From Candidatus Desulfaltia sp. (lineage in GTDB: Bacteria; Desulfobacterota; Desulfobacteria; Desulfobacterales; ETH-SRB1), in the NCBI GenBank assembly GCA_030656555.1, contig JAUSPN010000040.1:70536-134535 (forward strand): DNA of 64,000 nt. The letters run 5' to 3'. Below, in pieces: positions 8,963 through 31,514 of this stretch. The notes under the pieces were generated by a model that saw nothing but the letters and a program-made list of their open reading frames with translations, made no database searches and was not told where the DNA came from. The translations under genes and the position numbers were made by a program. The stretch's first letter is position 1. Every line of letters starts with the position of its first letter.

Positions 8963-10354
8963 ATGGATGGAAGAATTTTAATAGTTGACGATGAAAAGGA
9001 TATGCTTGTCCTTTTAAAAAGAATAATTGAAGAAAAGACCAAACATGTTGTTGAGACAGAATACAATCCTTTAAAGGTAGTAGAACTGCTTAGAAAACAG
9101 CAGTTTGATATTATAATAACTGATTTGAAAATGCCGAAAATGGATGGGATAGCTATCCTTGATATGGTAAAAAATATTCAACCCTCTGCTATCGTGGTAA
9201 TTATGACAGCATATGCCACTATTGAAACCGCTGTAGAAGCAACCAGAAAGGGCGCTTTTGACTATATATCCAAGCCATTCCGTAAAGAACGGATACTTAT
9301 AACAATTGGCAAGGCCATGGAATGGCAAAAGCTTACCCGGGAAAATATAACTCTGAAAAATTCCCTTAAGCAAAAAAAAGAATTTCCCCCAATTATCGGT
9401 TCAAGCCCTTCTATTATATCAATTACAAAAATGATTGTTCAGGTAGCCAAATCAACAGCTACGATTCTTATAAGCGGAGAAAGCGGCACAGGAAAAGAGC
9501 TGGTAGCAAAAGCTATTCATTATCACAGCAACCGTAAAAACAAACCTTTTATAACGATCAACTGTACCGCCATGCCTGAACAAATAATAGAAAGCGAACT
9601 TTTTGGCCACGTCAAGGGCTCCTTTACCGGCGCATGGAAGGATAAGAAAGGGATTGTTGAAGAAGCGGACCAGGGCACTCTTTTCTTAGACGAAATAGGA
9701 GATCTGAACATGGCCATGCAGGCCAAATTGCTTCGACTCCTGCAGGAAGGGGAATACAAGCCGGTTGGAGGTTTGACAACAGAAAAAGCAGATATCCGTT
9801 TTGTAGCCGCTACCAATCAAGATCTTAAAAAACTCATAGCAGTAAAGCAGTTTCGAGAAGACCTTTACTACAGGCTTAATGTTATTAATTTACACCTGCC
9901 CCCTTTAAGGGATAGAAAAGAAGATATTCCAGTTTTGGCATACCATTTTTTTGAAAAATTCAATTTGTTAAATGATAAAAAAATAAGTGGTATCGACCCC
10001 GAGGGAATATCAGCGCTAATATCTAAAAGCTGGCCCGGAAATATCAGGGAGCTGGAAAATTGTATTGAGCGTGGAGTTATCCTCTGCCAATCCGATACTA
10101 TTAAAATATCAGATATCCTGCCACAAGAACCTGTAGCGCATACTTCGCCTCTTTTTGATCACAAGATTTATACACTTCCATTTAAAGAGGCAAAGGAAAT
10201 CATTGTAAAGGCTTTTCATCACAAATATATTAACTGGATCCTTCAACAAAACAATGGTAATATTTCCAAGGCCGCCCAGCAGGCTGAACTGCAAAGACAA
10301 TATCTCCACAGGCTCATAAAAGAAGAGAATATTAACACTGAAATATTTAAATAA
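8963..10354 (+). CDS. Sigma-54-dependent response regulator (NtrC family: REC + AAA+ + Fis-type HTH)
   Basis: The receiver has ITDLKMPKMDG. Walker A is GESGTGKE, the sigma-54 contact loop is GSFTGA, Walker B is LFLDEIG, and the C-terminal HTH is GNISKAAQQAELQRQYLHRLIK. Confidence 0.95.
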   Translation: MDGRILIVDDEKDMLVLLKRIIEEKTKHVVETEYNPLKVVELLRKQQFDIIITDLKMPKMDGIAILDMVKNIQPSAIVVIMTAYATIETAVEATRKGAFDYISKPFRKERILITIGKAMEWQKLTRENITLKNSLKQKKEFPPIIGSSPSIISITKMIVQVAKSTATILISGESGTGKELVAKAIHYHSNRKNKPFITINCTAMPEQIIESELFGHVKGSFTGAWKDKKGIVEEADQGTLFLDEIGDLNMAMQAKLLRLLQEGEYKPVGGLTTEKADIRFVAATNQDLKKLIAVKQFREDLYYRLNVINLHLPPLRDRKEDIPVLAYHFFEKFNLLNDKKISGIDPEGISALISKSWPGNIRELENCIERGVILCQSDTIKISDILPQEPVAHTSPLFDHKIYTLPFKEAKEIIVKAFHHKYINWILQQNNGNISKAAQQAELQRQYLHRLIKEENINTEIFK

Positions 10355-10769: not shown

Positions 10770-10785
10770 TGGCATCCATATTGCT
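10770..10785 (+). promoter_or_regulatory. Sigma-54 (-24/-12) promoter
   Basis: TGGCAT-ccata-TTGCT matches TGGCAC-N5-TTGCW with GG and GC 10 nt apart. It lies 83 nt upstream of the 10868 ORF and downstream of a sigma-54 activator gene. Confidence 0.8.
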
Positions 10786-10867: not shown

Positions 10868-11137
10868 ATGGAAAAACTAAAGGTTAAAGAAATCACACTC
10901 CTCATGGATGAAAATCTTTCTGCGGAACAATCTGTTTCTTTAGAGGACAAGATTACAGATGCAATTGAAGTCATGCTTAAAAACGACCTCGACCGCATTG
11001 CCGTGACAAGCAAAAATAAAATTCTCGGCATGATAAAGCTTGAAGATGCGCTTAAAGTCATTGGATTAAAAGACGACCTGAAAAAAAAGGCAGCAAAAAT
11101 TATTATCATACATGGACGCAAAATTGTAATAGAGTAA
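10868..11137 (+). CDS. Small protein with a single CBS-like motif
   Basis: 89 aa; DRIAVTSKNKILGMIKLEDAL resembles one CBS repeat. It is the first ORF after the sigma-54 promoter. Confidence 0.55.
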   Translation: MEKLKVKEITLLMDENLSAEQSVSLEDKITDAIEVMLKNDLDRIAVTSKNKILGMIKLEDALKVIGLKDDLKKKAAKIIIIHGRKIVIE

Positions 11138-11285
11138 TACCTATAATTAAGCGATTTTTTAGTGATTATTATCAAATTTAAACAACAAAGAAGGAAGGAA
11201 GTTGAACCGTTGCATTTAAAACTTTGAAGTAAACGGATTGATATTGAACATATTGTAAAATCAGAGGGAAAGGAGAAATATTATT

Positions 11286-12572
11286 ATGAGTTTCTTTAAA
11301 CAATTGGGCTGTTTTATGATGATGGGCGCAAGAGCCCACGCAAAATGGGAGCTTGATGTTTCCAATACAATACTTGGAGACAAAAAGCGGCTTATTATAC
11401 TGGGTTTGCTTACCATCCCTGTAGTGCTTGGTGGTATTGCTTTTGCGGATCAAATCACCGGAGCCCTTCCCGAACTGCTTGGAGGCAAAAAGGCTTACAG
11501 CCCTGCTTTTTACAGTACTGGTATTTTTATAGTATCAATCTTTATCGGAATGGGTGCCGGCCTGATTACCGGATGCATCGGAGCCGGCGGCGGATTTATT
11601 ATAGCACCTGCTCTTATGAGCGCAGGTATCAAAGGTATCCTGGCTGTTGGTACCGACCTTTTTCACATCTTTGCCAAGGCGATAATGGGAAGCGTAATTC
11701 ACAGAAAATTAGGAAACGTTTCAGTGCCGCTTGCCATAGTCTTCCTGATAGGTGCAATTATTGGCGCAACAATCGGCGGACTTGTTAACCGCATACTTTA
11801 TGAGATTAACCCTGTTTTGAGCGATGCGTTTATCACGACTGTATACTCCCTTATGCTTGGATTTTTGGGTTTTTACTCCTTGGCAGACTTCATCAGCGCC
11901 AGAAAAGCTAATGCTGCAGCAAATGAGGGTGTACATGGAGGAAAAAGCGAAGGCGTTGATATGAAGAATCTGCCTAAAAAACTTCAGGATCTTAAAATAC
12001 CTCCTATGATCAAATTTGATTTTAATCTTGTTCCGGGAGGCAGGAGCATTTCATGGGTATTTTTAGTGCTCAGCGGCGCTCTTGTTGGACTTGCAGCAGG
12101 TATTATGGGTGTGGGCGGCGGCTTTTTAACCTTTCCCATATTTGTGTATATCCTTGGCGTTTCATCAATGACCACGGTTGGAACCGACATTTTCCAGATC
12201 GTCTTTACAGCCGGTTATGCTTCAATAAGCCAGTATGCTATTTACGGCTTCATCTTCTATACCCTGGCAATGGGCATGCTCCTCGGCTCACTGCTTGGTA
12301 TTCAGATTGGTGCATTAGTAACAAAAGTCGTTCCAGGAATCACAATCCGCGGCTTTTACGCAACAGCGGTTCTGGCTGGTTTTGTTAACCGTATTTTTGC
12401 TTTGCCGGCCAAGCTGGGAGCAATGGATATAATTAAAATTGCTCCGGGAACCGCCTGCCTTCTTGAAAGTATAGGTGTGTGGGCATTCTTCATTGTAATA
12501 GGTATATTTTCGGTCTGGGTAATTGGAACGTTTCTGATCAATATTCCAAAACTTAAGGGAGAGGAGGTATAG
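11286..12572 (+). CDS. TSUP-family permease (TauE/SafE, DUF81), long form
   Basis: Polytopic membrane protein with two half-repeats, each carrying a glycine motif (GCIGAGGGFIIAP and MGVGGGFLTFP) and GTD(L/I)F. The RBS is AAAGGAG. Confidence 0.85.
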   Translation: MSFFKQLGCFMMMGARAHAKWELDVSNTILGDKKRLIILGLLTIPVVLGGIAFADQITGALPELLGGKKAYSPAFYSTGIFIVSIFIGMGAGLITGCIGAGGGFIIAPALMSAGIKGILAVGTDLFHIFAKAIMGSVIHRKLGNVSVPLAIVFLIGAIIGATIGGLVNRILYEINPVLSDAFITTVYSLMLGFLGFYSLADFISARKANAAANEGVHGGKSEGVDMKNLPKKLQDLKIPPMIKFDFNLVPGGRSISWVFLVLSGALVGLAAGIMGVGGGFLTFPIFVYILGVSSMTTVGTDIFQIVFTAGYASISQYAIYGFIFYTLAMGMLLGSLLGIQIGALVTKVVPGITIRGFYATAVLAGFVNRIFALPAKLGAMDIIKIAPGTACLLESIGVWAFFIVIGIFSVWVIGTFLINIPKLKGEEV

Positions 12573-12574
12573 TC

Positions 12575-13261
12575 ATGCTTGCTAATAAAAAAGAATTTTA
12601 CGGCGGCTTTGGATTATTGGTTGGTTTTTTTGTTGTCTTGTTTATAATATTTTTACCTGTTTTTAACGGTCAAAACGGCATGCAATATCTGGATGATCTG
12701 TATAACTCCATTTCCAAAGGTTCAGCCTACTATATCCCAAAGATAAAAGAAGAAACAGATCGGTTTGTTGGAAATACAGTAAGCATAACCCTGGAAACAA
12801 AAGATGAAAAGCAGGCGCAGCAGATAGCCATGCTGTTTACAAAAGGCGGGGCAACAGCAGATGTGTCAGGAGCCCAGCTTAATGTATCGGGCGACCTCGG
12901 CGAAATCCTTGCAAATTGCCTGGCAGATGCGGATTTGATGTATCATAATGATGGGGCAAAGGTCTCAGGCAAATATGGATATGATGAGAGACAGGTTCTT
13001 TATAACTGGTGGAACGCGCTTAAGGAGGCAGATAAGGACTTGAAAAAGCAGAAACTGTTCAAAGAAGCCAACACAGTTACATCGGTCGTGAAGAAGACCG
13101 TTGAAGCTTCCTACAACTACTATAAAATTGAGCCTCAAAAGATTTCTGATAAATTATGGGTTGTTATATTTTCTCTGGTTTTCTATGTGAGTTACACGAT
13201 GTGGTACGGCTTTGCCGTTCTTTTCATGTTTGAAGGATGGGGCCTGAAACTGGAACATTAG
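12575..13261 (+). CDS. Hypothetical membrane-anchored protein (N- and C-terminal TM segments, ~150-aa soluble middle)
   Basis: The start lies 3 nt after the TSUP stop and has RBS GAGGAGG. I recognise no family. Confidence 0.7.
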   Translation: MLANKKEFYGGFGLLVGFFVVLFIIFLPVFNGQNGMQYLDDLYNSISKGSAYYIPKIKEETDRFVGNTVSITLETKDEKQAQQIAMLFTKGGATADVSGAQLNVSGDLGEILANCLADADLMYHNDGAKVSGKYGYDERQVLYNWWNALKEADKDLKKQKLFKEANTVTSVVKKTVEASYNYYKIEPQKISDKLWVVIFSLVFYVSYTMWYGFAVLFMFEGWGLKLEH

Positions 13262-13332: not shown

Positions 13333-13746
13333 CTATTGGTTCTTCTCTTTTAGCTCTTTAAGTTCCTTTTTCATACTCTTCCATTCCAAAGCTCTGTCAA
13401 TGGCAATCAATATCTGTTCTTTGCGAAAGGGTTTGGTGATGTAATCATAGGCACCTTTGTTTATTGCCTCTTCTGCTGATTCAATGGAACCATAGGCGGT
13501 AATAACCAATATGGGAATATATTGATCTATATTTCTAATCTTACCTATAAGTTCTATCCCATCCATGGTCGGCATCTTAAGGTCGGTTATAATCAGATCA
13601 TATCCTCCTTCCAGCACAAATTGAATGACCTCCAAAGGATTGTTTGTGGTGGTTACTTTGTGTTCAGTCTTTTCTGAAATAATCATGGCGAGAAGAGCAA
13701 GCATATCCAGCTCATCGTCCACAACTAAAATCCTTGCAGCCATCAT
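13333..13746 (-). CDS. Receiver-only response regulator, paralog of the NtrC-type receivers at 8963 and 46757
   Basis: ITDLKMPTMDGI and KGAYDYITKPFRKEQIL align by eye with both sigma-54 regulators. The protein stops in the linker, before any AAA+ domain. Confidence 0.9.
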   Translation of the reverse strand: MMAARILVVDDELDMLALLAMIISEKTEHKVTTTNNPLEVIQFVLEGGYDLIITDLKMPTMDGIELIGKIRNIDQYIPILVITAYGSIESAEEAINKGAYDYITKPFRKEQILIAIDRALEWKSMKKELKELKEKNQ

Positions 13747-13807
13747 ACCTCCTTTTCAGATAAAATGTTTGAACCGCAAAAGCGAGCGAATCCAAAAATA
13801 GGAATCT

Positions 13808-16069
13808 TCAATTAATTTGAGGTTGGGTTTTATCTGACATTTGCTTATTCCCAAGGGAAAGAACCGGTAAAGTTACAATAAAAGTTGTCCCCATACTCTC
13901 TCTGTCCTCTTCTTCAGCCACTGTCTCAAAATTTATGTTTCCCCCATACTTAGACACAATGCCATAGCTGACCGAAAGCCCCAGCCCCGTACCTTCGCCT
14001 CTCTTTTTTGTTGTAAAAAAAGCATTAAAAACTTTGTCTCTGTATTGTCTTTTAATACCATGTCCCGTATCTTTGAAAAGAATTTCCACCTTGTTGCCAA
14101 AAGAATTTAATCTGGTAGAAACAGTTAAAACGCCTCCACCTCGCATAGCAGCAACAGCGTTTATGATTAAATTCATGAAGACCTGCTGCAGATGGCCTGA
14201 ATCTCCTCTAACTTTGGGCAAATCTGTGGTAATATTCTTTTTTAAAACTATTTTTTCTGTAACCAGGATATTTTCAACAACAGCAAGTACTCTTTCAAGG
14301 CTTATGTTGACATCAGACGAATAGTCGGTTTTATCCGGATATCTGGCAAAACCGAGAATACTCTCGATAATCCTCTTGCAGTTTTGAGACTGCCTTTCTA
14401 TTGTTTCGAGAATCTCACGATTTTTGCCGGGCTCTATTCTTTCCAAAAGAATATCTGCAAAACCCGAAATCACTGCTATAGGCTGATTAAGTTCATGGAC
14501 AATGCCGGCAGTCAGTTTCCCAAGTGAAGCTAATTTTTCTGTATTATATATCTGTTCTTCCTCTAAATTTTTACGTTCTGTAATATCCCTTGAAATACCC
14601 AGAAAAGCATAAATTTTACCGGATTCATCTTTAAGAGGAACGAAGTTGCTGCTAAACCAATAATCGCTGTTGTCGACCTTAACAGGATATTTTACATTTA
14701 TATTGTTTCCGGTTTTGAGCGCCTCCGCAATAAAACCCATCTGTAATTTTGCGCTCTCTTCAGCAAAAAGATCGTACATGTTCTTTCCTGTTAAATTATC
14801 CGGGCTGTCCTTAAAAAAATTTGCCGAGGATCTATTCATTGAAAGAAACTTTCCGTTTTCATCAACCGTAAATATCAGGTCCTGCGCGCTTTCAACAAGG
14901 GTTTTGTATTTTTTCTCCGATTTTTCCAGCTTTTCTAAAAACTTCTCCAGATTTTTTGTTTTTTCTTTTACCTCTTCTTCCAGGGCGTTGGCCCAACGCC
15001 TCTCAAAGCCGATTACATACATGCAACCCAGAATAATGGCTAAGATCAGAGTTCCCTGGATATAAAACTGGCGTATATATACTGAATGAATAACACCCTC
15101 TACCTCGCTCATGGGTGCTACCACAGCCACTGACCATGACCAGTCACCGTGATAATAAACAGGTGCGTATGCAATTAATTTCTCCATCTCGATTTCTATG
15201 CCGCGGTGCCACCCTGAGACATACTGGCCTGTGCCTTCCTTGCCCTTAAGCATCCTTTCCTTTTGAATCATGTTTATTTTGGCAAAAGATATTTTAGGCT
15301 TTTTCATCTCACGGATTTTAAAGGCATCCTCTCCTATGAAGGCTCTTTGAGGATGATAGAGGAATATGCCTCTTTTATCTATAACCCATGCATATCCTGT
15401 TTTACCCATTTTTATTCCTTGAGTAGCGTTTCTAACCAAATATGTTATGTCAACGGTAAACATAAGCATTCCTGCGAGACGTCCCGTAGGTACCGGATGC
15501 GCCTCGTCAACTGATTCCTCATAGGTGGGTATAACCAAACGCATGATAAGTTCATCAGGGTGCTGCGGACTCGCCCTGTTGATTTCACAGCAATAAATTC
15601 TGTTTTTATTTTCCTTCCTGAGAGCCCATTTAAAATAGTCTGTATCCGTAAAATTATCGTGTATAATAAGTGGTGTTGCTCTATTATCGACAATATATGC
15701 TTTTTTTCCGCTTTGGTCTATAAACCTTATCTCAACCACCCCTTCTTCCTTGGCAGCGGATAATGTTATATTCATCCGCCTTGCCCAGGAGACCTTTTCA
15801 AGATATTGAATTGAAGGAGAAAGGTTTAAAAGTGAAAGTTCGCGCTGAATATAATCAAGGCTGTGTTCCATGCTGCTGGCGGCATACCTGGCTAATACCA
15901 ATTGCTGCTGATTAAAATCCTCACGGATAATCTCTTTCATCTGCTTGGAGCTGATCAGTCCAAGATATACGGCACCCATAAGAAGCACAATTATGAGAGT
16001 AACTACAACGATTATCGCTCTTCTTGTGTTAAAGTATTTTTCTTTATAAGATTCTTTTATTTTAAGCAC
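13808..16069 (-). CDS. Sensor histidine kinase (extracytoplasmic Cache-like domain + PAS + HisKA + HATPase; family 2)
   Basis: TM - ~300-aa periplasmic domain (GYAWVIDKRGIFLYHP) - TM - PAS (KKYKTLVESAQDLIFTVDENG). The H-box is IVHELNQPIAV, with GTGLGLS. Confidence 0.9.
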   Translation of the reverse strand: MLKIKESYKEKYFNTRRAIIVVVTLIIVLLMGAVYLGLISSKQMKEIIREDFNQQQLVLARYAASSMEHSLDYIQRELSLLNLSPSIQYLEKVSWARRMNITLSAAKEEGVVEIRFIDQSGKKAYIVDNRATPLIIHDNFTDTDYFKWALRKENKNRIYCCEINRASPQHPDELIMRLVIPTYEESVDEAHPVPTGRLAGMLMFTVDITYLVRNATQGIKMGKTGYAWVIDKRGIFLYHPQRAFIGEDAFKIREMKKPKISFAKINMIQKERMLKGKEGTGQYVSGWHRGIEIEMEKLIAYAPVYYHGDWSWSVAVVAPMSEVEGVIHSVYIRQFYIQGTLILAIILGCMYVIGFERRWANALEEEVKEKTKNLEKFLEKLEKSEKKYKTLVESAQDLIFTVDENGKFLSMNRSSANFFKDSPDNLTGKNMYDLFAEESAKLQMGFIAEALKTGNNINVKYPVKVDNSDYWFSSNFVPLKDESGKIYAFLGISRDITERKNLEEEQIYNTEKLASLGKLTAGIVHELNQPIAVISGFADILLERIEPGKNREILETIERQSQNCKRIIESILGFARYPDKTDYSSDVNISLERVLAVVENILVTEKIVLKKNITTDLPKVRGDSGHLQQVFMNLIINAVAAMRGGGVLTVSTRLNSFGNKVEILFKDTGHGIKRQYRDKVFNAFFTTKKRGEGTGLGLSVSYGIVSKYGGNINFETVAEEEDRESMGTTFIVTLPVLSLGNKQMSDKTQPQIN

Positions 16070-16090
16070 CTTATCCTTAAAAACAGTTTA

Positions 16091-17188
16091 TCATTTTTCA
16101 GATGAAACAACCGGCAAAGCAACAGTAAAAGTTGTGCCTTTTCTATCTTTGTCTTCTTCTTCGGTAACAGTTTCAAAGCTTATGTTGCCATCATACTTGG
16201 ATATCATATTATAACTGGCTGAAAGTCCCAACCCTGTCATATCTCCGACTTCTTTTGTAGTAAAAAAAGGATCGGATATCCTGTCTCTGTATTCTTTTTT
16301 AATACCGTGTCCTGTATCCTTGAAAAGTAGTTCTATTCTATCACCCGAGGTATCAAGTCTGGTAGAAATGGTCAGGGTCCCTCCTCCCTGCATGGCTGAA
16401 ACAGCATTTGTAATCAAATTGATAAATACCTGCTGGAGATGTTTTGAATCTCCCCTTACATTGGGAAGATCTTCTGTAAAGTTTTTTACTATGGTAATAT
16501 GCTTTTTAAGCAAAATATTTTCAACCAACGAAAGCACTCTGTCGATACTCGCATTCACGTCCGCAGAATAGTCGCTTGCTTCAGGATGCCTGGCAAAGCT
16601 CAGCAGATCTTCAACAATTCTTTTACAATTCAGCCCTTGTCTCTCTATGGTTTTGAGCATATTGTAATCCTTGCTCCCAGGTTCCATCTTTTCTAAAAGA
16701 AGATCCGCAAAACCTAATATTACTCCTAATGGATTATTAAGTTCATGAGCCAGATCAGCCGCCAGTTTACCTAAAAAGATTAATTTTTGCACATGGTAAA
16801 GATTGTCTCCGCTCTTTTTCCACTGGGTAATATCCCTGGACATTTCAATTACCCTTGTAACAACTCTATTTTCATCCAGCATTGGATATGCTATAATTCT
16901 AAAATATGAAACCTTGCGGCCATCATAACGGGGATGAAAAGCTTCGCCTGATTTCCCGCTATTGAATGCTTCCTGTACAGGACAGAAATGATTTGAAATT
17001 TTACAAGGTTTGGACTCATCGTGAAGGACTTGATAACAATGCCTGCCGATAACCTCTTTTTTTTGCTTACCAACTCTGTTTAAAAACGCTTTATTTACCT
17101 CTTCTATTCTGTAATCCCGATCAACAACCATAATCTGGTCTTTGATCCCATTTATAATGGCCTCTAAAAATTTTGCCTTTTCCAGCAT
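16091..17188 (-). CDS. Soluble PAS histidine kinase with Cys-rich PAS domain
   Basis: No TM segment. The PAS region contains GRHCYQVLHDESKPCKISNHFCPV. The H-box is LAHELNNPLGV; HATPase motifs are DTGHGI / MTGLGLS. Confidence 0.9.
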   Translation of the reverse strand: MLEKAKFLEAIINGIKDQIMVVDRDYRIEEVNKAFLNRVGKQKKEVIGRHCYQVLHDESKPCKISNHFCPVQEAFNSGKSGEAFHPRYDGRKVSYFRIIAYPMLDENRVVTRVIEMSRDITQWKKSGDNLYHVQKLIFLGKLAADLAHELNNPLGVILGFADLLLEKMEPGSKDYNMLKTIERQGLNCKRIVEDLLSFARHPEASDYSADVNASIDRVLSLVENILLKKHITIVKNFTEDLPNVRGDSKHLQQVFINLITNAVSAMQGGGTLTISTRLDTSGDRIELLFKDTGHGIKKEYRDRISDPFFTTKEVGDMTGLGLSASYNMISKYDGNISFETVTEEEDKDRKGTTFTVALPVVSSEK

Positions 17189-17200
17189 GCTATCTTACTT

Positions 17201-19750
17201 TCAGTTCTCTTTATAATATTTATCCACGAACTCTTTAACGTACCAGTCAACCATGGCATCATTAAAAAGAGTCATGTCTAATTGTTTTGTGTATGCTGTC
17301 ATACGCGCCAATATGTCAAGTTTTTTCAAAATAGTTGATTTATTATACTTGGTTATCCTTGCATCAAGTACGTCTCCAGTCCTTTTTACACTAAAATCCA
17401 TCATTTCTAAAATTTCTTTAATAAGTCTGGTTCTCCTGGTTCGTCTATCAAGAGAAGCGCCGCCGCCCTTAAATAAAAACCGGGCATAGTTATCGTTTAT
17501 ATTGTCGCCGGCATATGCCTCAATAGTCTGGATATGATAGCCAAGCATGATGTTAAAGTTCATGTATTCCCTGGAAATTATAGCAAAGCTGGGTTTCCAT
17601 AATAACTTCTCGGAGCGAGGCTGCATAGTAGTATCGGCAATAACGCTCAAAAACCCTTTTACGTTTATTGGCGGCGGGCCCGGCCATTCTATAGCCATCA
17701 TACCTTTCAGCAGAGCATTCATTGGTATGGATAGAATATGATCCGGCGTTATTTTTTTTGAATCACTTTTAATGCCGCCACCTAAATCTATAACATATAT
17801 TTCAAGTGGAATTTTGACCTCAAGTTTCACAGCCTCCCGTTTATTTATATCAGGGTTGTCAACTATTTTAAACATCTCTCTCATTGCCGCTTCATGAGAA
17901 AATCGTGTTATATCATGAAAGGTTTCACAATAATCCGGGCTGAATTTTTCATCTTCAGGATAAATTAGGTTTAAAGGGACTATGTTTTTTAACAGCTCAC
18001 GCAATACTTTAAAAACTGTAGTATCCTTGAAATGGTTTTCCCTTTTCCCAGCCTCAACAAGTTCATCTATGCGTCCTTCATAAATGTTCCCATTAAAAGC
18101 ATCAACAGTTACCTCTGTATCAGCCTTCAATGTCTTCATGGCTACTTCGGTATTAAGCAGAGTGGGAATCTTATATTCTCTTGCCAGTGTTGCCATATGA
18201 CCGGTAAGGCTTCCGACATCAATAACGATTGCACTGGTTTTATTCATGACAGTGACAAACTGGGGCGATGTGTGTTTAGCCACAAGAACGGCCCCTTCCG
18301 GGAACTTTTCAAGATCTTCTTCTTTATTAATAATAAAAACTTTTCCTGCCCCAACACCTTTGCATGCGATCTGTCCCTTATCTATAAGGATTTTATGGTT
18401 TTTTGTAATTGTCTGAATATTTTTGACAGGTTTTTCTTTTAAAATTCTTAGAGACCTGGTCTGTAAAATTAAAAAATTATTATTCTCATCAAGAGCCCAC
18501 TCTATATCTTGAGGTCTATCATAATGTTTTTCAAGTGCCAGCGCATAATCGGCAAGAAATTTTATTTGATCATCGGTCAAACATGAAGTTGCCCTTTTCT
18601 CCTCCGGGACATCAACTTCAACTGTACCTTCCTCGGAATTACATTTGAGCATAACCTTTTGTACGGGCGTAGTTTTTTCCAAAATTGTCTTTGATTCGTC
18701 CCTGGAAACTACATATATGTTTGGACTTACTGTCCCATCAACCGCATATTTACCCAGGCCCCAGACAGCGTTGATGATAATGTTATTCTTTTCAGCGTCG
18801 GTAGGATCGTGCGAATACATGACTCCGCTTGCCTTGGAATCTATCATTTCAACTACTCCAACCGCCATGACCATATCTTCCTCATCAAACCCCTTGCTCT
18901 TGTAGTAAAATATGGCTCTGGGGGTAAACAGACTCGCAATAACTTTTTTATACTGTTCTATGAGGTTATCCGTATTTACATTAAGTACGGTTTTATATTG
19001 ACCAGCGAAGGTAAACTCGGCATCTTCATATATAGCGGAACTTCTAACCGAGACTGTTGGTGAGCTGACTCCGCGAGAAATTTTCCTGGAAAGTTCTGAA
19101 AATGCATTCAGCATGCTGGTTTCAACATCGGAAGGAATTTGAGATTTCATAATCAAATTTTGCGCTTCCCTGCTAATTTGGTTTAATCCTTCTATATCAA
19201 CTATATCTACCGATTTTAAAACAATTTTATCTTTTAATTCATTATATTCAATAAACTTTTTAAAGGCATAGGCGCTTATGCAAAAGCCATCAGGAACAGG
19301 CAGGCCGACCTTGTTCTTGATCTCACCCAGGTTGGCATTTTTACCACCGACACTGTTAACCATCTCTTTTGTTGCTGATTCAAAAGGAATAGTAAAATCC
19401 GTTACCGGAATATCTGTTTTGTTAATAAGGACCGCCTCAATTTTTGAATTAATCTTTGCGAATGCAAAATAAAGATTAGGATATTTTCCTTTTGAGAGTT
19501 TATCAAGATTCACAATAATATTCTGAACACTGTCTACCAGTTTATTGCAACTGGACCTGACATAATTCATATCGAATATGTATTCGCCTGCAAGCTTATC
19601 CTCCATGTCTGCCATAATTTCCAAAACAGCGTTGTTTTCATTGAGAAGTTGTTTGAAGTAAAGATACCTCTCTTTGAATACCTGCCCGTTATCCAAGACA
19701 GGTTTTTGAGGAGCAATCTCTCTTCTGAATATTTTCAATAAACGACGCAT
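17201..19750 (-). CDS. PpsA-like PEP/pyruvate-dikinase-family protein (N-terminal ATP-grasp + swivel phosphohistidine domain + unknown C-terminal domain)
   Basis: VGGKNANLGE is the nucleotide-binding domain signature and GSLTGHMATLAREYKIPT is a swivel-His motif. The last ~280 aa lack the motifs of the PEP/pyruvate TIM-barrel domain. Confidence 0.85.
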   Translation of the reverse strand: MRRLLKIFRREIAPQKPVLDNGQVFKERYLYFKQLLNENNAVLEIMADMEDKLAGEYIFDMNYVRSSCNKLVDSVQNIIVNLDKLSKGKYPNLYFAFAKINSKIEAVLINKTDIPVTDFTIPFESATKEMVNSVGGKNANLGEIKNKVGLPVPDGFCISAYAFKKFIEYNELKDKIVLKSVDIVDIEGLNQISREAQNLIMKSQIPSDVETSMLNAFSELSRKISRGVSSPTVSVRSSAIYEDAEFTFAGQYKTVLNVNTDNLIEQYKKVIASLFTPRAIFYYKSKGFDEEDMVMAVGVVEMIDSKASGVMYSHDPTDAEKNNIIINAVWGLGKYAVDGTVSPNIYVVSRDESKTILEKTTPVQKVMLKCNSEEGTVEVDVPEEKRATSCLTDDQIKFLADYALALEKHYDRPQDIEWALDENNNFLILQTRSLRILKEKPVKNIQTITKNHKILIDKGQIACKGVGAGKVFIINKEEDLEKFPEGAVLVAKHTSPQFVTVMNKTSAIVIDVGSLTGHMATLAREYKIPTLLNTEVAMKTLKADTEVTVDAFNGNIYEGRIDELVEAGKRENHFKDTTVFKVLRELLKNIVPLNLIYPEDEKFSPDYCETFHDITRFSHEAAMREMFKIVDNPDINKREAVKLEVKIPLEIYVIDLGGGIKSDSKKITPDHILSIPMNALLKGMMAIEWPGPPPINVKGFLSVIADTTMQPRSEKLLWKPSFAIISREYMNFNIMLGYHIQTIEAYAGDNINDNYARFLFKGGGASLDRRTRRTRLIKEILEMMDFSVKRTGDVLDARITKYNKSTILKKLDILARMTAYTKQLDMTLFNDAMVDWYVKEFVDKYYKEN

Positions 19751-19961
19751 TCCAAACCTTTTTGAATCTTATGAATTGCCTTCTAATTTTGCCTGACACG
19801 TTGATAGCAAAGACCAAATTGAAGATTCCCTGTAGCTTGGCTACAGGGTTCTTCAAAAATCTTCTGGAAGAGGAAATCAGAAAGGGTGCTGAAAAAAAGC
19901 CCGGGGAAAGAAAAACCTCCCCTCGAACAAATTAATCATGAAATCCGGTTATTATACTTGC

Positions 19962-21494
19962 TCATGGTGCCGGCAAACTAACCGGCATTCCCATCATCGG
20001 CCAGATCACGGCAACGCATAGAGCCACTACGGCCATCAGAAGGATGCTGGCAGGAATACCGTACAGGAAGAACTCGGCTGTGGTAAACTGCTTTGAATCA
20101 TAAGCAATGGCATTAGGAGCCGCACCCACCAGGAGCAGAAAGGGCATGCCCGCTGTTACCAGTGATGCAAACAGAACCACCTCGCCGGCCACTCCCAGAT
20201 AAGGAGCAATAACCAGAGCCACCGGAAGTGAAATTGCGATGGCAGCCACATTCATGATAAAGTTTGTCATAATCATCACAAAAAAAGCAATCCCCAGAAT
20301 AAATACAAAACCAGGTGCATTCTGAAACATCACCAGCCAGTTTACCGCCATCCATTTAGCCGCGCCTGTTTCCCACAGGCAAAAACCGATGCTCATTGCT
20401 CCGCCGAAAAGGAGAATAATGTTCCAGGGCAGCTCCTCCAGGTCTTGACGATCAAGAACCTTTGCAATGAAAAAGATGACGGTTGCAAGCAATATAATAG
20501 CTGTCTTGTCATATGCTTTTAATGTTGGGATAAACGACCGCAGGCCGAGGGCGATGACCACCAGAGAGACAATGGTTATAGCGAGGATTTCACCTTTACT
20601 CATCTTCCCCAATTCAGCACACAGTTTTTTAGCTTTTTCCTTGAGACCGGGGATTACCTTTTTCTCCGGTTTAAAAAAGACCATGAAAAAACCCCACAAA
20701 GCAAAGACCATTATCCACCCGGGAACCATCATGTAATAGGTCAGTTGAAAAAAGGTTATATCCTTTCCCATGATATCGTTAAAGAAGCCGACGGCCACAG
20801 CGCCGCGTGCCGCGCCCAAAAGAGTAACAATGCTCGCTGCTCCTGCCACATAAGCCATACCTATAAAAAGTCCCTTGGCAAACCTGGTCGGCTTTTCCTC
20901 GTTGACTCCATACAATACATTTATAGACATAAGGAGGGGGAATATTGTTGCGGCTACTGCGGTGTGGGCCATGATATGGCAAAGAGCTGCCGTCACAAAA
21001 AACGAGCCGAGATAGATCATGCTGGTCTTTTCTCCAACAATACTCAGCATCTTGTATGCCATGCGTTTGGTAAGGCCCGTCTTCGTAAAGACCATGCCGA
21101 TAATAACCGAGCCAAAGATAAACCCAACCGAGGGATCCATGAAATCCCTAAAGGCTACTTTAGCTGGTCTGATCAGAAACAGGGCTTGTAATACGCCTAT
21201 CATAATGCTGGTTATACCAATCGGCACGACCTCAAATACCCACCAGGTACCGGCCAGCAAAAAGACAGCTATCGCCCCCTTGGCTGCTTTGTCCAGCTGG
21301 AAATGTGCTCCCACAGGGTCCACGGCATCCGGCCATTGCGGAGAATAATAGACAATTAGAAACAGAGCAATCCCTATCCCCATAAAAAGCAGACGCTGCC
21401 AGTCCAGCCTCGCCTTTTTTGGAGAAAGGACTATCTCGTCAGGCATCTCTGGGAGGCCCGGCCTTGTAGCAATAGGTTTCTTCTTCTCAACCAT
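19962..21494 (-). CDS. Anion permease of the ArsB/NhaD-DASS (SLC13-like) superfamily
   Basis: 510 aa with ~12 or more TM helices. A GAAPNAIAY hairpin-type motif lies near the C terminus. Confidence 0.7.
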   Translation of the reverse strand: MVEKKKPIATRPGLPEMPDEIVLSPKKARLDWQRLLFMGIGIALFLIVYYSPQWPDAVDPVGAHFQLDKAAKGAIAVFLLAGTWWVFEVVPIGITSIMIGVLQALFLIRPAKVAFRDFMDPSVGFIFGSVIIGMVFTKTGLTKRMAYKMLSIVGEKTSMIYLGSFFVTAALCHIMAHTAVAATIFPLLMSINVLYGVNEEKPTRFAKGLFIGMAYVAGAASIVTLLGAARGAVAVGFFNDIMGKDITFFQLTYYMMVPGWIMVFALWGFFMVFFKPEKKVIPGLKEKAKKLCAELGKMSKGEILAITIVSLVVIALGLRSFIPTLKAYDKTAIILLATVIFFIAKVLDRQDLEELPWNIILLFGGAMSIGFCLWETGAAKWMAVNWLVMFQNAPGFVFILGIAFFVMIMTNFIMNVAAIAISLPVALVIAPYLGVAGEVVLFASLVTAGMPFLLLVGAAPNAIAYDSKQFTTAEFFLYGIPASILLMAVVALCVAVIWPMMGMPVSLPAP

Positions 21495-22585: not shown

Positions 22586-24247
22586 ATGAAAAATGTACGT
22601 TATATAAAACTTCAAAGAAAAATTATTGCAATAACGCTGCTGGTTGCCCTTACCCCCCTTATCATTCTTGGCGCAACGATTTATTTCCAGTTTACCGTAA
22701 TGTATAAGGATAAAATCGAGGAACAGATAAAATACCGGTCGAGTGCTCACGCAAAATCAATCGGTCTTTTTTTAAAGGAACGAACCGCCATCTTATCTGC
22801 CATGGCCGACACCCATACCCTTCAAGAGCTGATGGATAAAAATAATTTGTTGCGCATATTTAAGATTATGAACACCAGAGCAGGAGCTTTTGTTGATCTG
22901 GGAGTCATTGATAATAAAGGTTTGCATCGTTCCTATGTGGGACCATATGAACTAACCGGCCTAAACTATTATAAGCAGCCATGGTTTGCGGAAGTTATGA
23001 ATAAGGATGTTTACATTAGCGATGTATATATGGGCTACAGACAACTTCCTCATTTTATTATTGCTGTTAGGCGACAGGAAGGTCTTAAAAGCTGGATCCT
23101 TAGAGCAACTATCGATTCCGATATTTTTGAAGGAATCGTACGCTCAGCCCAGGTCGGGAAAACAGGGGATGCTTATGTTATTAATAAGGATGGCTTGTTC
23201 CAAACGCGTCCGCGTTTTAAAGGAGGGATATTATCTGAATCGAATTTGGATACAACCCTGTTCGGAGGGACAACTACGGTTAACAAACCGATAAATGATA
23301 CTGGGATGAAACGTCTCTACGCCGGAAGCTGGTTGAAAAACGACAAATGGCTTTTCATCGTTAGTCAGGATGTGTCTGAGGAAATGAGTGGGCTGTTTGC
23401 AACCCGGAATTTGGAAATTACAATAATTGTTTTAGGTATATTGGGGATTGTCATTGCAACTGTTTTTACTACCCGTATGACAGTTACTCATTTAGAAGAA
23501 ACTGACGCAAAAATGAATGAACTCAATGCGCAGCTTAGTCATTCAGATAAATTAGCGGCATTGGGCAAATTATCGGCAAGCATAGCACATGAGATTAACA
23601 ACCCCCTGGCCGTTATTTTACAAAAAACCGGATGGATGGAAGACCTTTTGGATGAAGAAGAGTTTCGACAAAGCAAAAATTTTGAAGAATTCAAGATATC
23701 CATCAAAAAGATAGAGGAACATGTGGAACGGGCTCGAAGAGTTGTCCATAATATGCTCGGTTATGTACGCAAAATGGAGCCTTGCTTAGAAGATGTAGAC
23801 ATAAACAAGACTATTGAGCAAACCATTGTTATTTTAAAAAATTTTGCAGGTATTAACAATATCGAAATTAAGACGGATCTTTCCACTGATCTTCCAATCA
23901 TTTCCGGAGATCAGGCCCGGTTTCAGCAGGTGTTTTTGAACCTCATATCAAATGCCATAGATGCTATAGGCAAAGATGGTTTGATAGAGGTGAAAAGTCG
24001 AAAAGTTAATTCGCGCATTAACGTCAGCATAATGGATAATGGTCCGGGCATTGCCGAAGAAATGCAGAGCAAGATATTCGACCCTTTTATTACATCAAAA
24101 GAGCAGGGCAAGGGAACAGGCCTTGGATTGTGGGTCAGCTATAATATAATGGATAAATTGGGAGGAGCCATTACACTGGAAAGCAAGGTGGGGAAAGGAG
24201 CTGTTTTTACAGTGCAAATTCCGATCGTATATCCGGAGAAAAAATAG
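22586..24247 (+). CDS. Sensor histidine kinase with Cache-like domain (family 1)
   Basis: YISDVYMGYRQLPHFIIAV; H-box [11 protein letters not shown]; HATPase motifs DNGPGI / GTGLGLW. Confidence 0.9.
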   Translation: MKNVRYIKLQRKIIAITLLVALTPLIILGATIYFQFTVMYKDKIEEQIKYRSSAHAKSIGLFLKERTAILSAMADTHTLQELMDKNNLLRIFKIMNTRAGAFVDLGVIDNKGLHRSYVGPYELTGLNYYKQPWFAEVMNKDVYISDVYMGYRQLPHFIIAVRRQEGLKSWILRATIDSDIFEGIVRSAQVGKTGDAYVINKDGLFQTRPRFKGGILSESNLDTTLFGGTTTVNKPINDTGMKRLYAGSWLKNDKWLFIVSQDVSEEMSGLFATRNLEITIIVLGILGIVIATVFTTRMTVTHLEETDAKMNELNAQLSHSDKLAALGKLSASIAHEINNPLAVILQKTGWMEDLLDEEEFRQSKNFEEFKISIKKIEEHVERARRVVHNMLGYVRKMEPCLEDVDINKTIEQTIVILKNFAGINNIEIKTDLSTDLPIISGDQARFQQVFLNLISNAIDAIGKDGLIEVKSRKVNSRINVSIMDNGPGIAEEMQSKIFDPFITSKEQGKGTGLGLWVSYNIMDKLGGAITLESKVGKGAVFTVQIPIVYPEKK

Positions 24248-24278: not shown

Positions 24279-24710
24279 ATGCAACGCCCAAAAATATTAA
24301 TGGTGGATGACGAAGAAGATTTGATGAAGACATTAGTCAACCGACTTAATAAAAGAAACTTTAAAACAACCGGCGTTCTAAGCGGTGAAGAAGCCTTGGA
24401 AACCATTAAGAAAGATCCTTTTGATGTTGTTGTTTTAGATGTTAAGATGCGGGGAATAGACGGCATAGAAACCCTGCGGGAGCTGAAAAAGATCGATCCC
24501 GGAATTGAGGTTATTCTGCTTACCGGACATGCCTCTGTCGATGCAGCCCTGGATGGAATGAAATTGGGGGCATACGAGTTCCTCATGAAACCGTGTAAAA
24601 TTGAAGAATTGATTGAAAAAATCGACGGGGCATGGGAAGTTAAGACGGAAAGAGACAAAAGAATCCGTTTGGCTGAAATTAGAAAAACTAATGCGTCTGC
24701 AAAGCTATAA
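24279..24710 (+). CDS. Single-domain response regulator
   Basis: LMVDDEED, VLDVKMRGIDG and LMKPCKI motifs; 143 aa, the same length class as 6713. Confidence 0.9.
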   Translation: MQRPKILMVDDEEDLMKTLVNRLNKRNFKTTGVLSGEEALETIKKDPFDVVVLDVKMRGIDGIETLRELKKIDPGIEVILLTGHASVDAALDGMKLGAYEFLMKPCKIEELIEKIDGAWEVKTERDKRIRLAEIRKTNASAKL

Positions 24711-24768: not shown

Positions 24769-27369
24769 TTATGAGACATGAAAATTGTAGTTTCTTTCCA
24801 GAAAAGCCTTTGCCATCTCCTCCACGCTGGCTTCGTTTCTCATAAGCATATCCATCTGTCGAGTAAATAAAAGCAACCGGCCGATCAGCTCCAGTTTTTC
24901 TTCAATCAAGGAAAGTTCCTGTTTTTGATAGCGGCTATTCACATTATCTCCCTTGACGTTTACAGAAAAGTCGAGTCCTTTAAGCATTACGGCTATTGAG
25001 CGCGCGCGCCGGTTTTTTCTGACATCATCTGCGGCGCCGCCCTTAAAGGAAAATGTAATATAATTTTTGGTAATACTCTCGCTGCAATATGAATCAAGAA
25101 CACTGTAATGGTATCCAACCCTGGAGCTGAAATTGATATACCTGTCTGAAATAATCGCGTAGCTCCTATCGCCGAATCTCTGCCCTGTATTCAATGGAGG
25201 CGCCAACATCTGCCGGCTCATTACCGACATAAGACCTTTAAAATGGACCGGCTTTGGCTCGCGCCAATCCAATTCTTTATGCGTCATCCCTTTAAGAAGA
25301 GCCTTAAGGGGGAGCGAGGAGATATTATCGATCGTAACCTTCTTTACACCTCTTGTTACCCCTGTAAGGCCTCCTTCCAGATCGATTATATGAAGGTCTA
25401 TAGGAATGCGCGCATCCAGCTTAACCGCGCCTTCTCCCTTGTCTGAAATCAGATCGCTGATCTGAAACATCTCGGTGTAGGATACTTCGTGGACGAGCCG
25501 CATGATGTCATGAAGAGAGGTGCACGACTGCGGAGTAAAGTCCGGCGACTTGGGATTCAGAAGATGAAGCGGCAGGATCAGTTCGGCAACATTTCTTAAA
25601 GTCTGATATACAGGCGTACCTTTCATGTGTGTATCCCTGCTCATCTGGATAGACAGTAATTCCTTAACCCTGCCCTCATACACCCTTCCGGAATAGGCAT
25701 CCACCGTGATCTCTATTCCTTCGGGAATGTTTGTGAAAGCCGTTTGAGTACCCAATATGGAAGGAACTGCAAATTCTCTGGTCAGAGACGCCATGTGCCC
25801 CAGAACACTGCCTGAATCTGTAATAATAGCCTGGGCCTTTTTCATGACGATTCCGAATTTCGGGGTCGAATGCCTGGCCACAAGAACAGCGCCTTCGGGA
25901 AAATTTAAGAGATCTTCTTCCGAGCGTATATGAAAGGCCGGGCCAAATCCCACGCCCGGAAAGGCCACCGACCCATTTTCTATCAACACATTATAACCGG
26001 TAAGCCTGGGTATGGACTTTTTGAAACTGTCTTTTTCAAGATGAAGCGGCCTGGTTTGCAGCATGATAAGCCGGCCATTGCCGTCGAGTGTCCATTCCAT
26101 ATCCTGGGGACACCCAAAGTGGGTTTCCAGTTTAACGGCATATCCGGCAAGGGTGCGGATATGCTCCGGCAAAAGACATGCTTTATCCTGTTTGTCTTTT
26201 GGCACAGAGATTTCAATAAGTCCGCCATCAGGATTGCTCACCAATTGAACAGGCTTATTGGAAATTCTGGTTTCAATAATATTAAGATCCTTGTCTTTGG
26301 AAACCGTGTAAGTATCCGGTGTTATTACTCCGTCAACTGCATACGGCCCCAGGCCCCATACAGCGCTGATGATGATATTGTTTTCCAGTATATTAAAGGG
26401 ATGCCGCGAGTACATAACGCCGCTGGCTATCGATTCAATCATTTGAAGACAGGCCACGCTCATTGCGGTGTCTTCATCCCGCATCCCTTTGTTAAGGCGA
26501 TACGATATAGCCCGTGGTGTATACAGGCTGGCAGCAATATATTGATAGGTTTTGACCAGCTTGTCAGGAGGAACGTTTAATGATGTTAAGTATTGACCGG
26601 CATAAGAAATTTCGCTGTCCTCTCCTATTGCGCTGCTTCGCATGCATACCCGTGGCAAAGATCCGTCATGCCCATCCTGCCTTATTTCTTCGGCTATTTT
26701 ATCGTAAGCCGACAGAATGCCCTTTTCTACCTCCGGAGGAACCTGCGACATGATAATCAGCTTTTCAATTTCCTCACTGACACTATTTACCGTTTCCTGG
26801 TCGTTTGGATCCAAACCCATTTGTCTCTTCTTGATCTTATCAACAAGATCATTATGGCTCAGGAAGGCTTCAAAAGCATATGTTGTTATGGCAAATCCTT
26901 TGGGTATGGGCAGGTTCACGCGATTGCACATCTCACCCAGGTTAGCGTTCTTCCCTCCTACCCAATCGACCATATCCTTGTTCACCTCAGTATAAAACAA
27001 GATCGGTTTGGCAGGGGCTATCTCCTTCTTTTTACCCAGCTCCTCTTTGATTTTTTCATTGATTTTTGTAAGTATATCGTACAACAGGGCATACCGGTTG
27101 TTTGAAAGGGCATTTAAACTCTTAACCATACGGTTGGTATGAAAGACAGCACGTGTGGAATTTGCCCTTATATAAGACATCCCAAAAACCTGCCGGCCTT
27201 CCATCTTTTCTTCAATATCCGAGATAATGTTTAATACTTCGCTGTTGGAAGCCAACAACTCCTTAAACATGGAATATTTAGTCCGAAAGATATCGGATAG
27301 TTCCTCTTCATTTTGAGTTTTCGACCTGCGAAACAGCCGGTTGCCGAATATTTTTAGCTTTTTAAACAT
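24769..27369 (-). CDS. PpsA-like protein, paralog of 17201..19750
   Basis: VGGKNANLGE and GSVLGHMASLTREFAVPS are present. The C-terminal ~280 aa align with the other copy (NY..F.FKGG.A....R..RAR). Confidence 0.85.
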   Translation of the reverse strand: MFKKLKIFGNRLFRRSKTQNEEELSDIFRTKYSMFKELLASNSEVLNIISDIEEKMEGRQVFGMSYIRANSTRAVFHTNRMVKSLNALSNNRYALLYDILTKINEKIKEELGKKKEIAPAKPILFYTEVNKDMVDWVGGKNANLGEMCNRVNLPIPKGFAITTYAFEAFLSHNDLVDKIKKRQMGLDPNDQETVNSVSEEIEKLIIMSQVPPEVEKGILSAYDKIAEEIRQDGHDGSLPRVCMRSSAIGEDSEISYAGQYLTSLNVPPDKLVKTYQYIAASLYTPRAISYRLNKGMRDEDTAMSVACLQMIESIASGVMYSRHPFNILENNIIISAVWGLGPYAVDGVITPDTYTVSKDKDLNIIETRISNKPVQLVSNPDGGLIEISVPKDKQDKACLLPEHIRTLAGYAVKLETHFGCPQDMEWTLDGNGRLIMLQTRPLHLEKDSFKKSIPRLTGYNVLIENGSVAFPGVGFGPAFHIRSEEDLLNFPEGAVLVARHSTPKFGIVMKKAQAIITDSGSVLGHMASLTREFAVPSILGTQTAFTNIPEGIEITVDAYSGRVYEGRVKELLSIQMSRDTHMKGTPVYQTLRNVAELILPLHLLNPKSPDFTPQSCTSLHDIMRLVHEVSYTEMFQISDLISDKGEGAVKLDARIPIDLHIIDLEGGLTGVTRGVKKVTIDNISSLPLKALLKGMTHKELDWREPKPVHFKGLMSVMSRQMLAPPLNTGQRFGDRSYAIISDRYINFSSRVGYHYSVLDSYCSESITKNYITFSFKGGAADDVRKNRRARSIAVMLKGLDFSVNVKGDNVNSRYQKQELSLIEEKLELIGRLLLFTRQMDMLMRNEASVEEMAKAFLERNYNFHVS

Positions 27370-31466: not shown

Positions 31467-31514
31467 AACAGCGTTCCGGTGCGCTATGTTGATGAAGAAA
31501 GGAGACAAACCAAG

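Follow-up and report, generated by a model that had tools for sequence, protein, structure and literature searches.

What does a gene that resembles phosphoenolpyruvate (PEP) synthase do beside a row of two-component signalling genes? The question is raised by a stretch of 64,000 nucleotides (nt) of Candidatus Desulfaltia sp. (assembly GCA_030656555.1, contig JAUSPN010000040.1, positions 70,536 to 134,535 of the forward strand; hereafter the window), in which a dikinase-like protein of 849 amino acids (aa), referred to here as type 1, is encoded on the minus strand next to two histidine kinases and a stand-alone receiver (coordinates in Table 1). An initial annotation of this DNA had described the protein as a PpsA-like enzyme without the PEP/pyruvate-binding TIM barrel, and had read it either as a small-molecule kinase under sensory control or as an input to a His phosphorelay. 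We found that the barrel is replaced by a family-specific α/β domain of ~280 aa without a detected structural relative in the PDB, and that the enzyme, a dCache-PAS kinase and an output-less NtrC-like receiver form a conserved three-gene module. Our best explanation, to which we give as a whole a probability of roughly 45%, is that the protein is a catalytically competent member of the PEP-synthase/PPDK superfamily, predicted to act as an ATP-dependent dikinase on a small anionic acceptor and wired to the kinase-receiver pair. The earlier interpretation is thereby partly supported, in the missing barrel and in the conserved linkage.

The 849-aa protein consists of an N-terminal helical domain, an ATP-grasp domain, a swivel phosphohistidine domain and the C-terminal domain, in that order. 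Pfam recovered PPDK_N and PEP-utilizers and nothing else, as the initial annotation had expected when it predicted PF01326 and PF00391 without PF02896, and both motifs that it quoted, VGGKNANLGE and TGHMATLAREYKIPT, were found in the protein. Conservation was assessed in an alignment of 94 full-length family sequences, comprising 92 representatives (29-45% identity to the window protein) and the two paralogues of the window. The ATP-grasp residues K137, R236, E242, E417, Q430 and R432 and the swivel residue H518 were kept in at least 97% of these, and H518 aligned in hhalign with the catalytic-loop His of E. coli PpsA (GGRTCHAA). With a full-length profile built from 33 full-length family members, the hhalign probability against E. 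coli PpsA was 100%, for residues 122-571 only (PpsA 12-474; 33% identity across 446 aligned columns), and the alignment stopped exactly at the end of the swivel domain, residue 571. The nearest NCBIfam models were the PEP synthase equivalogs (TIGR01418 / NF005057), which gave 402.1 and 389.5 bits where the cut-offs are 598 and 739.75, with matches that span profile positions 6-479 and 5-475 only. Likewise, only the ATP-grasp and His parts of the full AlphaFold2 model aligned in Foldseek (PEP synthase 2ols over 466 columns, rifampin phosphotransferase over ~320). With both domains present and their catalytic residues conserved, the protein belongs to the ATP-grasp/swivel-His dikinase superfamily.

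Beyond residue 571 the PEP/pyruvate barrel is absent. Pfam gave no match of any kind, PF02896 included, at E ≤ 10 in the last 284 residues of the window protein or in that region of any of 18 aligned family members, and searches of the PDB with the C-terminal sequence and with its profile also matched nothing. Aligned directly with the PpsA barrel, the C-terminal profile reached an hhalign probability of 0.8%. In the AlphaFold2 models, with a predicted local distance difference test (pLDDT) score of 77 for the full-length protein and 72 for the C-terminal domain alone, the C-terminal part showed helices and then a meander of four antiparallel strands (721-761), after which came one long helix, a hairpin and a further two helices; this secondary structure is not (β/α)8. 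A Foldseek search of the PDB with the model of the last ~280 aa returned no barrel and no significant match (best E = 0.012, template-modelling (TM) score ~0.2). Arginine kinase, McsB and C-Ala were considered as fold relatives of this domain and rejected as noise (TM ~0.2, nothing at E < 0.01), the matches to arginine kinase and McsB standing at a non-significant E of 0.03-0.17. The Pfam and PDB searches, hhalign, the secondary structure and Foldseek thus agree with the earlier observation that ~280 residues follow without barrel motifs, and the divergent but genuine barrel that could have undone it was not found.

The C-terminal domain is as well conserved as the catalytic core. Mean column conservation was 0.70 in the C-terminal domain vs 0.67 in the ATP-grasp domain, and the family-wide means over the 94 sequences were 0.50 vs 0.47. 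Nine C-terminal residues were conserved in at least 97% of the sequences (H612, D613, R616, H619, H739, G763, R773, D793 and D825) and four more in 90-97% (C608, N754, Y755 and G762). Nearly all of these are potential metal, anion or acid-base groups, and they adjoin a Gly-rich loop (KGGGA) and an Arg-rich helix. Because this mixture of His, Asp, Cys and Arg lies beside such a loop and helix, we infer that it forms a putative metal- and anion-binding catalytic site, and that the domain is probably not a decayed or purely structural appendage.

At the other end of the protein, residues 1-118 had no Pfam match. AlphaFold2 modelled helices at 21-52, 61-86 and 92-109 as a three-helix bundle; a profile search of the PDB gave coiled-coil noise only, and a profile search of protein databases returned only fragments of the dikinase-like family itself. 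Judged by its sequence, the N-terminal stretch of ~110 aa is a second family-specific domain added to the dikinase core.

The same architecture recurs in a large family. Among the matches listed, more than 120 full-length homologues had at least 50% identity, all of ~850 aa and with the same two Pfam domains, and their names were automatic only: PEP synthase, pyruvate, water dikinase, or PEP/pyruvate-binding domain protein. An exhaustive profile search found 1,424 clusters (50% identity) that carry the C-terminal domain at E ≤ 0.001. In the best 150 of these 1,424 clusters the domain was always at the C-terminal end, the full-length proteins had ~830-900 aa, the one exception being a protein of 1078 aa that bears an unassigned extension, and the shorter matches looked like fragments; no extra Pfam domain, as a Rosetta-stone fusion would provide, was found in the longest representatives (up to 1078 aa). 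At least 550 relatives occur in species-representative genomes, nearly all of them in Nitrospirota (Thermodesulfovibrionales and others) and Desulfobacterota, and the family includes members from the cultured Desulfobulbus elongatus DSM 2908 and from the complete ORM2a genome. Literature searches found no published work on this dikinase-like family.

Downstream of the type-1 gene, Pfam confirmed the soluble PAS kinase, the Cache-PAS kinase and the receiver-only protein named in the initial annotation, and the four minus-strand open reading frames (ORFs) are separated, as it had said, by gaps of 12, 21 and 61 nt. Both kinases have HisKA and HATPase_c domains, and the receiver (REC1) keeps the canonical acidic pocket, Thr and Lys (D10, D11, D55, T83 and K105) without an output domain, so that all three are two-component proteins. 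Within the window, REC1 is most closely related to the receiver domain of one sigma-54 activator (8963-10354; 54% identity), the other stand-alone receivers of the window being only 27-31% identical, and we therefore regard REC1 as an NtrC-type receiver that lacks its output domain. The dCache-PAS kinase (HK1) may serve both REC1 and this sigma-54 activator.

That the dikinase-like gene heads its operon, as had been proposed, is plausible, because the upstream DASS gene is followed by a terminator-like hairpin, with ~150 nt between it and the start codon; in a relative (L001, Eth-SRB1, Desulfobacterota, 65% identity), CBS and DASS genes lie co-directionally just upstream. Between the hairpin and the gene is a perfect 9-bp inverted repeat, present as a single copy vs 0.01 expected by chance, which is a possible operator or RNA hairpin. 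No sigma-54 promoter with ≤ 2 mismatches was found on the correct strand of the 211-nt upstream gap, and no riboswitch or structured RNA was matched in Rfam anywhere in the window.

The linkage of the enzyme to two-component genes is conserved across phyla. We examined 49 family genes flanked by at least 4 kb in each direction in the fetched loci, counting neighbours within 6 kb. A receiver was present near 38/49 (78%) and a histidine kinase near 35/49 (71%), with a dCache domain homologous to that of the window in 30/49 (61%). CBS proteins were as frequent as receivers (38/49, 78%), followed by a DASS transporter (24/49, 49%), a GntR (GntR/UTRA) regulator (22/49, 45%), an LCIB-like carbonic anhydrase (17/49, 35%) and TauE (15/49, 31%). 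The partners were specific in kind as well: the nearest stand-alone receiver belonged to the REC1 subfamily for 52 of 58 type-1 genes, scoring 130-219 bits to REC1 vs 50-90 bits to the three other stand-alone receivers of the window, and the nearest kinase was of the HK1 type for 46 of the 48 type-1 genes that have a kinase within 6 kb. At many loci the receiver gene ends 0-75 nt from the enzyme gene. In L001 the gene array is preserved in full, as CBS, CBS, DASS, CBS, enzyme, PAS kinase, dCache-PAS kinase and receiver, whereas in Nitrospirota relatives (~50% identity) the enzyme lies between a divergent GntR-CBS-DASS-LCIB carbonic anhydrase operon and a convergent dCache-PAS kinase and receiver. 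The adjacency of enzyme, kinase and receiver thus survives the switch from a co-directional arrangement in Desulfobacterota to a convergent one in Nitrospirota; it was found in both phyla and in any orientation, and the loss of linkage that would have spoken against the initial annotation was not seen.

The module is also multiplied as a unit. The window holds two enzyme-kinase-receiver modules, the second ~5 kb from the first and built around a second paralogue (type 2) with the same N- and C-terminal domains, an HK2-type kinase and a REC2-type receiver. At some loci up to three family genes are interleaved with kinase and receiver genes (L045). Only six type-2 genes had a receiver nearby, and their split of 3 against 3 does not establish a pairing of type 2 with REC2/HK2-type partners. 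Some further features of the paralogues were observed. The type-2 gene of the window lies directly downstream of a dCache-sigma-54 activator (27471-29939), and several C-terminal residues that appeared invariant in type 1 are changed in its product (N752T, D753K, G764A and D768V). Tandem pairs of dikinase-like genes stand at L013, L021, L022, L028, L039 and L046, and three copies at L045; such duplication is frequent in Thermodesulfovibrionales genomes, where adjacent copies often share one downstream receiver and kinase pair.

We propose the following mechanism for the preferred reading. The ATP-grasp domain would bind ATP and pyrophosphorylate His518, the γ-phosphate would be lost to water, as in PEP synthase, and the swivel domain would carry the β-phosphate to the C-terminal domain. 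There the site of C608, H612-D613, R616, H619, H739, R773, D793 and D825, which probably binds a metal, would position a small anionic acceptor for phosphorylation, for a net reaction of ATP + X + H2O -> AMP + X-P + Pi. The dCache-PAS kinase would sense the periplasm, and the phosphorylated receiver, having no other obvious target, would control the enzyme by direct binding. The dikinase would then be a non-transcriptional output of a two-component system within a DASS/TauE/CBS uptake cluster, putatively for sulfate. Going further, and quite tentatively, the receiver-switched dikinase might make a new phosphorylated small-molecule signal, or might phosphorylate a regulator of transport or the oxyanion that is taken up; in Nitrospirota, the GntR/UTRA protein, which would control the CBS-DASS-carbonic-anhydrase operon, could be what detects the product, although a role as ligand of this adjacent regulator is speculative.

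Several points weigh against this reading. Where the flanks are long enough, about one family gene in five lacks a receiver within 6 kb, and adjacency fits a receiver that regulates the enzyme, an enzyme that phosphorylates the receiver, or plain co-regulation alike and cannot distinguish among them. The structural models are of moderate confidence, with the His loop (512-532) and residues 693-717 below a pLDDT of 50, and a predicted TM score of 0.54 leaves the domain arrangement uncertain; because of this moderate confidence, the negative Foldseek result is weaker evidence for a new fold. The assignment of DASS to sulfate is itself putative, and the LCIB-type carbonic anhydrase in Nitrospirota would fit bicarbonate equally well; together with the Mrp-like neighbours there, it leaves room for bicarbonate or other anions.

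Four other explanations were weighed. An ordinary PEP synthase whose barrel has diverged past recognition has hardly any likelihood left, being largely refuted by Pfam, PDB, hhalign, secondary structure and Foldseek together. Automatic annotations do give family members the names PEP synthase or pyruvate, water dikinase, and over the first 450 residues the best alignments are those with PEP synthase models and structures; however, scores of 402 vs 598 and 389 vs 740 bits are far under the equivalog cut-offs, homology to PpsA ends at residue 571 with the C-terminal profile at 0.8% against the barrel, the four consecutive antiparallel strands predicted are incompatible with (β/α)8, and no TIM barrel appeared among the Foldseek matches. 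A co-regulated metabolic dikinase is conceivable, if rather unlikely: it would activate a compound imported by DASS/TauE, or a downstream metabolite, in analogy to phenylphosphate synthase or PEP synthase, and the two-component genes would control its expression only. The superfamily has repeatedly recruited small-molecule acceptor modules (rifampin phosphotransferase, PigC/RedH and HpeI are among the matches), transporter genes recur beside the family gene, and the cluster contains sigma-54-like promoters together with sigma-54 activators. Yet no further pathway enzymes are conserved beside the family gene, and the one-to-one multiplication of enzyme, kinase and receiver at single loci (L045, L052 and the window) points to a signalling module. 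In Nitrospirota, moreover, a purely transcriptional link from kinase to enzyme gene is not evident, because the two-component pair includes no DNA-binding regulator and the sole transcription factor nearby is GntR/UTRA.

The remaining two explanations give the phosphate to a protein. As an input to a phosphorelay, which we consider unlikely, the enzyme would pass the His518 phosphate to Asp55 of REC1 or to the receiver of the sigma-54 activator and so report the ATP or energy state, its C-terminal domain docking the receiver or sensing a ligand. Two-component systems routinely pass phosphate from phospho-His to Asp, the enzyme is paired specifically with one receiver subfamily (52/58), and REC1 not only lacks an output domain but is close enough to the receiver of the sigma-54 activator in the same cluster (54% identity) for a shared phosphodonor to be conceivable. 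Against this, most loci (71%) already have a cognate HisKA/HATPase kinase next to the enzyme gene, which makes a second phosphodonor unneeded; we know of no swivel-domain protein that phosphorylates a receiver; and the three His, three Asp, Cys and several Arg of the C-terminal domain with their Gly-rich loop resemble a small-molecule or metal site and not a protein-docking surface. It is more improbable again that the protein is a protein kinase of the dikinase type, whose C-terminal domain would bind a protein substrate, for instance the DASS transporter, a sigma-54 activator or the CBS protein, and whose phosphorylation of that partner would tune transport. To our knowledge, no member of the ATP-grasp/swivel-His dikinases phosphorylates another protein; the similarity to arginine kinase and McsB in Foldseek was not significant, and informative fusions were not found among the longest representatives (up to 1078 aa). 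What speaks for such a kinase is that CBS proteins are linked to the enzyme as tightly as receivers (78%) and that DASS proteins have been reported with putative regulatory phosphorylation sites (PMC5840216).

Table 1. Features of the window discussed in the text, with positions counted from its first nucleotide.
Feature	Position	Strand	Basis or remark
Dikinase-like protein, 849 aa (type 1)	17201..19750	-	ORF, Pfam, homologues, AlphaFold model
N-terminal three-helix domain, aa 20-118, motif MADMEDKLAGE	19397..19693	-	AlphaFold helices; family-specific
ATP-grasp nucleotide-binding domain (PPDK_N, PF01326), aa 132-450	18401..19357	-	Pfam E = 9.6e-100
Swivel phosphohistidine domain (PEP-utilizers, PF00391), aa 483-554	18089..18304	-	Pfam E = 1.5e-19; catalytic His518
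C-terminal domain, aa 575-849, mixed α/β	17204..18028	-	Without similarity in Pfam, the PDB or PpsA
Soluble PAS histidine kinase, 365 aa, Cys/His-rich PAS	16091..17188	-	Pfam PAS-HisKA-HATPase
Membrane dCache-PAS histidine kinase, 753 aa (HK1 type)	13808..16069	-	Pfam dCache-PAS-HisKA-HATPase
Stand-alone receiver, 137 aa (REC1 type), NtrC-like	13333..13746	-	Pfam receiver domain only
Perfect 9-bp inverted repeat CCCTGTAGC-N3-GCTACAGGG	19828..19848	.	78 nt upstream of start codon
Terminator-like hairpin with T-run, between DASS and dikinase-like genes	19904..19922	-	~150 nt before start codon
DASS-family anion:Na+ symporter, 510 aa, putative sulfate transporter	19962..21494	-	Family scans; function from PMC11887813, PMC5840216
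CBS-domain protein, 174 aa	21507..22031	-	Pfam
dCache histidine kinase, 553 aa (HK2 type), adjoins second paralogue	22586..24247	+	Pfam
Stand-alone receiver, 143 aa (REC2 type), adjoins second paralogue	24279..24710	+	Part of second module
Second paralogue, 866 aa (type 2), same N- and C-terminal domains	24769..27369	-	41% identical over full length
REC-AAA+ sigma-54 activator	8963..10354	+	Pfam
TauE/TSUP permease (428 aa) and 228-aa membrane protein	11286..13261	+	Pair recurs near module

The module lies in a larger signalling and transport cluster, which, like the second paralogue and the N-terminal domain, had gone unmentioned in the initial annotation. Between ~3.7 and 41 kb the window encodes Usp and CBS proteins, several receivers, a REC-CBS regulator and two sigma-54 activators; one dCache-PAS and four dCache kinases, in addition to the dCache-sigma-54 activator; and one DASS and two TauE/TSUP transporters. 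A 30.5-kb cluster of this kind, built around a DASS-type sulfate transporter, has been described in Desulfosarcina variabilis and 26 sulfate reducers (Sci Adv 2025, PMC11887813) as a putative regulatory cluster for sulfate uptake. Named in its legend are DASS transporters, sensor kinases, response regulators, Usp, CBS proteins and REC-CBS regulators, and its authors proposed that the Cache kinases sense external sulfate and the CBS proteins the internal state. The sulfate assignment of DASS rests on family membership, proteomics and sulfate-dependent expression (PMC11887813, PMC5840216), the clustered DASS genes of Desulfobacterium autotrophicum responding to sulfate concentration (PMC5840216). 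Compared by gene inventory, the window shares with the published cluster a DASS transporter, several dCache kinases, response regulators, Usp, CBS and REC-CBS proteins, and its lineage is Desulfobacteraceae-like. Unlike the window, the cluster as published has no category for PEP-synthase-like genes in its description or colour legend, and neither "dikinase" nor "phosphoenolpyruvate synthase" occurs in the text of PMC11887813 or in the supplementary files searched. Since the published description names no such gene, the dikinase-like enzyme is an uninterpreted component of a known cluster.

The 365-aa soluble PAS kinase has no hydrophobic N-terminus. Residues ~50-75 of its PAS domain contain a Cys/His-rich stretch, HCYQVLHDESKPCKISNHFCP, which suggests a metal, Fe-S or redox-sensing cofactor; a PAS kinase at 7638-8960, with 39% identity, is without those cysteines. 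The 365-aa kinase was found in the Desulfobacterota relative L001 and was absent from the Nitrospirota loci shown. The 228-aa membrane protein (12575-13261, plus strand) has no Pfam match and directly follows TauE in many loci (L004, L009, L011 and others), with a PF27327 (AF_1016) protein in its place in L002; it may be a partner of the TSUP permease. Sigma-54-type -24/-12 elements, TGGCAT-N5-TTGCT, one mismatch from the consensus, were found at 10770-10785 and 29965-29980 (plus strand), ahead of two TauE/TSUP operons, one at 10868-13261 with an 89-aa single-CBS ORF as its first gene and the other at 30426-31859. As candidate targets of the sigma-54 activators of the cluster they are suggestive only, because matches at ≤ 2 mismatches are barely above chance across the window.

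Further along, a receiver fused to a CBS pair (294 aa, 35731-36615, plus strand) has as neighbours another stand-alone receiver at 33510-33959 and, at 33998-35698, a dCache kinase. On the margin of the signalling cluster (37149-39709, minus strand), a histone-deacetylase-family gene (355 aa) adjoins a gene for a 411-aa protein with a weak GNAT match, and the two may form a protein acetylation/deacetylation pair. In other genomes, an LCIB-type (theta) carbonic-anhydrase-like gene follows DASS in L002, L004, L005 (6302-7042 of that locus) and many Nitrospirota loci, and antiporter-type gene sets (Mrp-like or Proton_antipo_M) lie beyond it in L004 and L005. The "sulfate" DASS cluster of Nitrospirota could thus handle bicarbonate/CO2, or couple both.

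Sulfate reducers of the Desulfobacterota and Thermodesulfovibrionia oxidise a large share of the organic carbon of marine sediments (PMC11887813). The family described here, with ~1,400 clusters and often duplicated within a genome, is an unaddressed conserved part of the only cluster so far proposed to control their uptake of sulfate. What is new is a widespread dikinase family that carries two unannotated domains and keeps conserved signalling partners; its core chemistry is expected to be of the known PEP synthase kind. If our reading is true, a new acceptor domain of the dikinase superfamily would imply new phosphoryl-acceptor chemistry or a new substrate; on the more tentative version of it, with a receiver-switched dikinase, sulfate-reducing lineages would have a new signalling logic for the uptake of sulfate or other inorganic anions that acts through a domain of new fold. 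The pairing with an output-less receiver likewise offers a testable candidate target for stand-alone receivers.

Among known systems, Enzyme I and EI-Ntr (PtsP) share with the window protein the swivel phosphohistidine domain and the idea of a phospho-His carrier that informs two-component systems. Enzyme I, however, has no ATP-grasp domain, takes as phosphodonor PEP bound in its TIM barrel and contains a subdomain that binds HPr/NPr, and EI-Ntr has an N-terminal GAF domain, whereas Pfam found neither GAF nor PF02896 in the window protein and its His domain alone matched the corresponding models (26 bits vs 824, 25 vs 342). With PpsA (EC 2.7.9.2) it shares the order of ATP-grasp domain and swivel His, the catalytic His and ATP-grasp residues, and probably the two-step pyrophosphoryl-His chemistry. 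It differs from PpsA in having, instead of the TIM barrel PF02896, an unrelated α/β domain of ~280 aa, and in addition an N-terminal helical domain of ~110 aa, in falling below the equivalog cut-offs, and in a gene context of signalling and transport, not of gluconeogenesis or ppsR. Rifampin phosphotransferase, PigC/RedH and HpeI belong to the same superfamily; they exchanged the barrel for another substrate module and act on small molecules other than pyruvate, and the ATP-grasp domain of the window protein is structurally similar to that of these enzymes (Foldseek E = 1e-23 to 1e-24). The window protein is nevertheless not a rifampin phosphotransferase, with 233 bits vs a cut-off of 999 for NF041857 and, in Foldseek, no structural similarity detected between its C-terminal domain and the rifampin-binding domain. 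The order of domains differs as well, as the initial annotation had pointed out: in the rifampin phosphotransferase type the substrate domain lies in the middle and the His domain at the C-terminus, whereas here ~290 residues follow the His domain, which precedes the acceptor domain as it does in PpsA.

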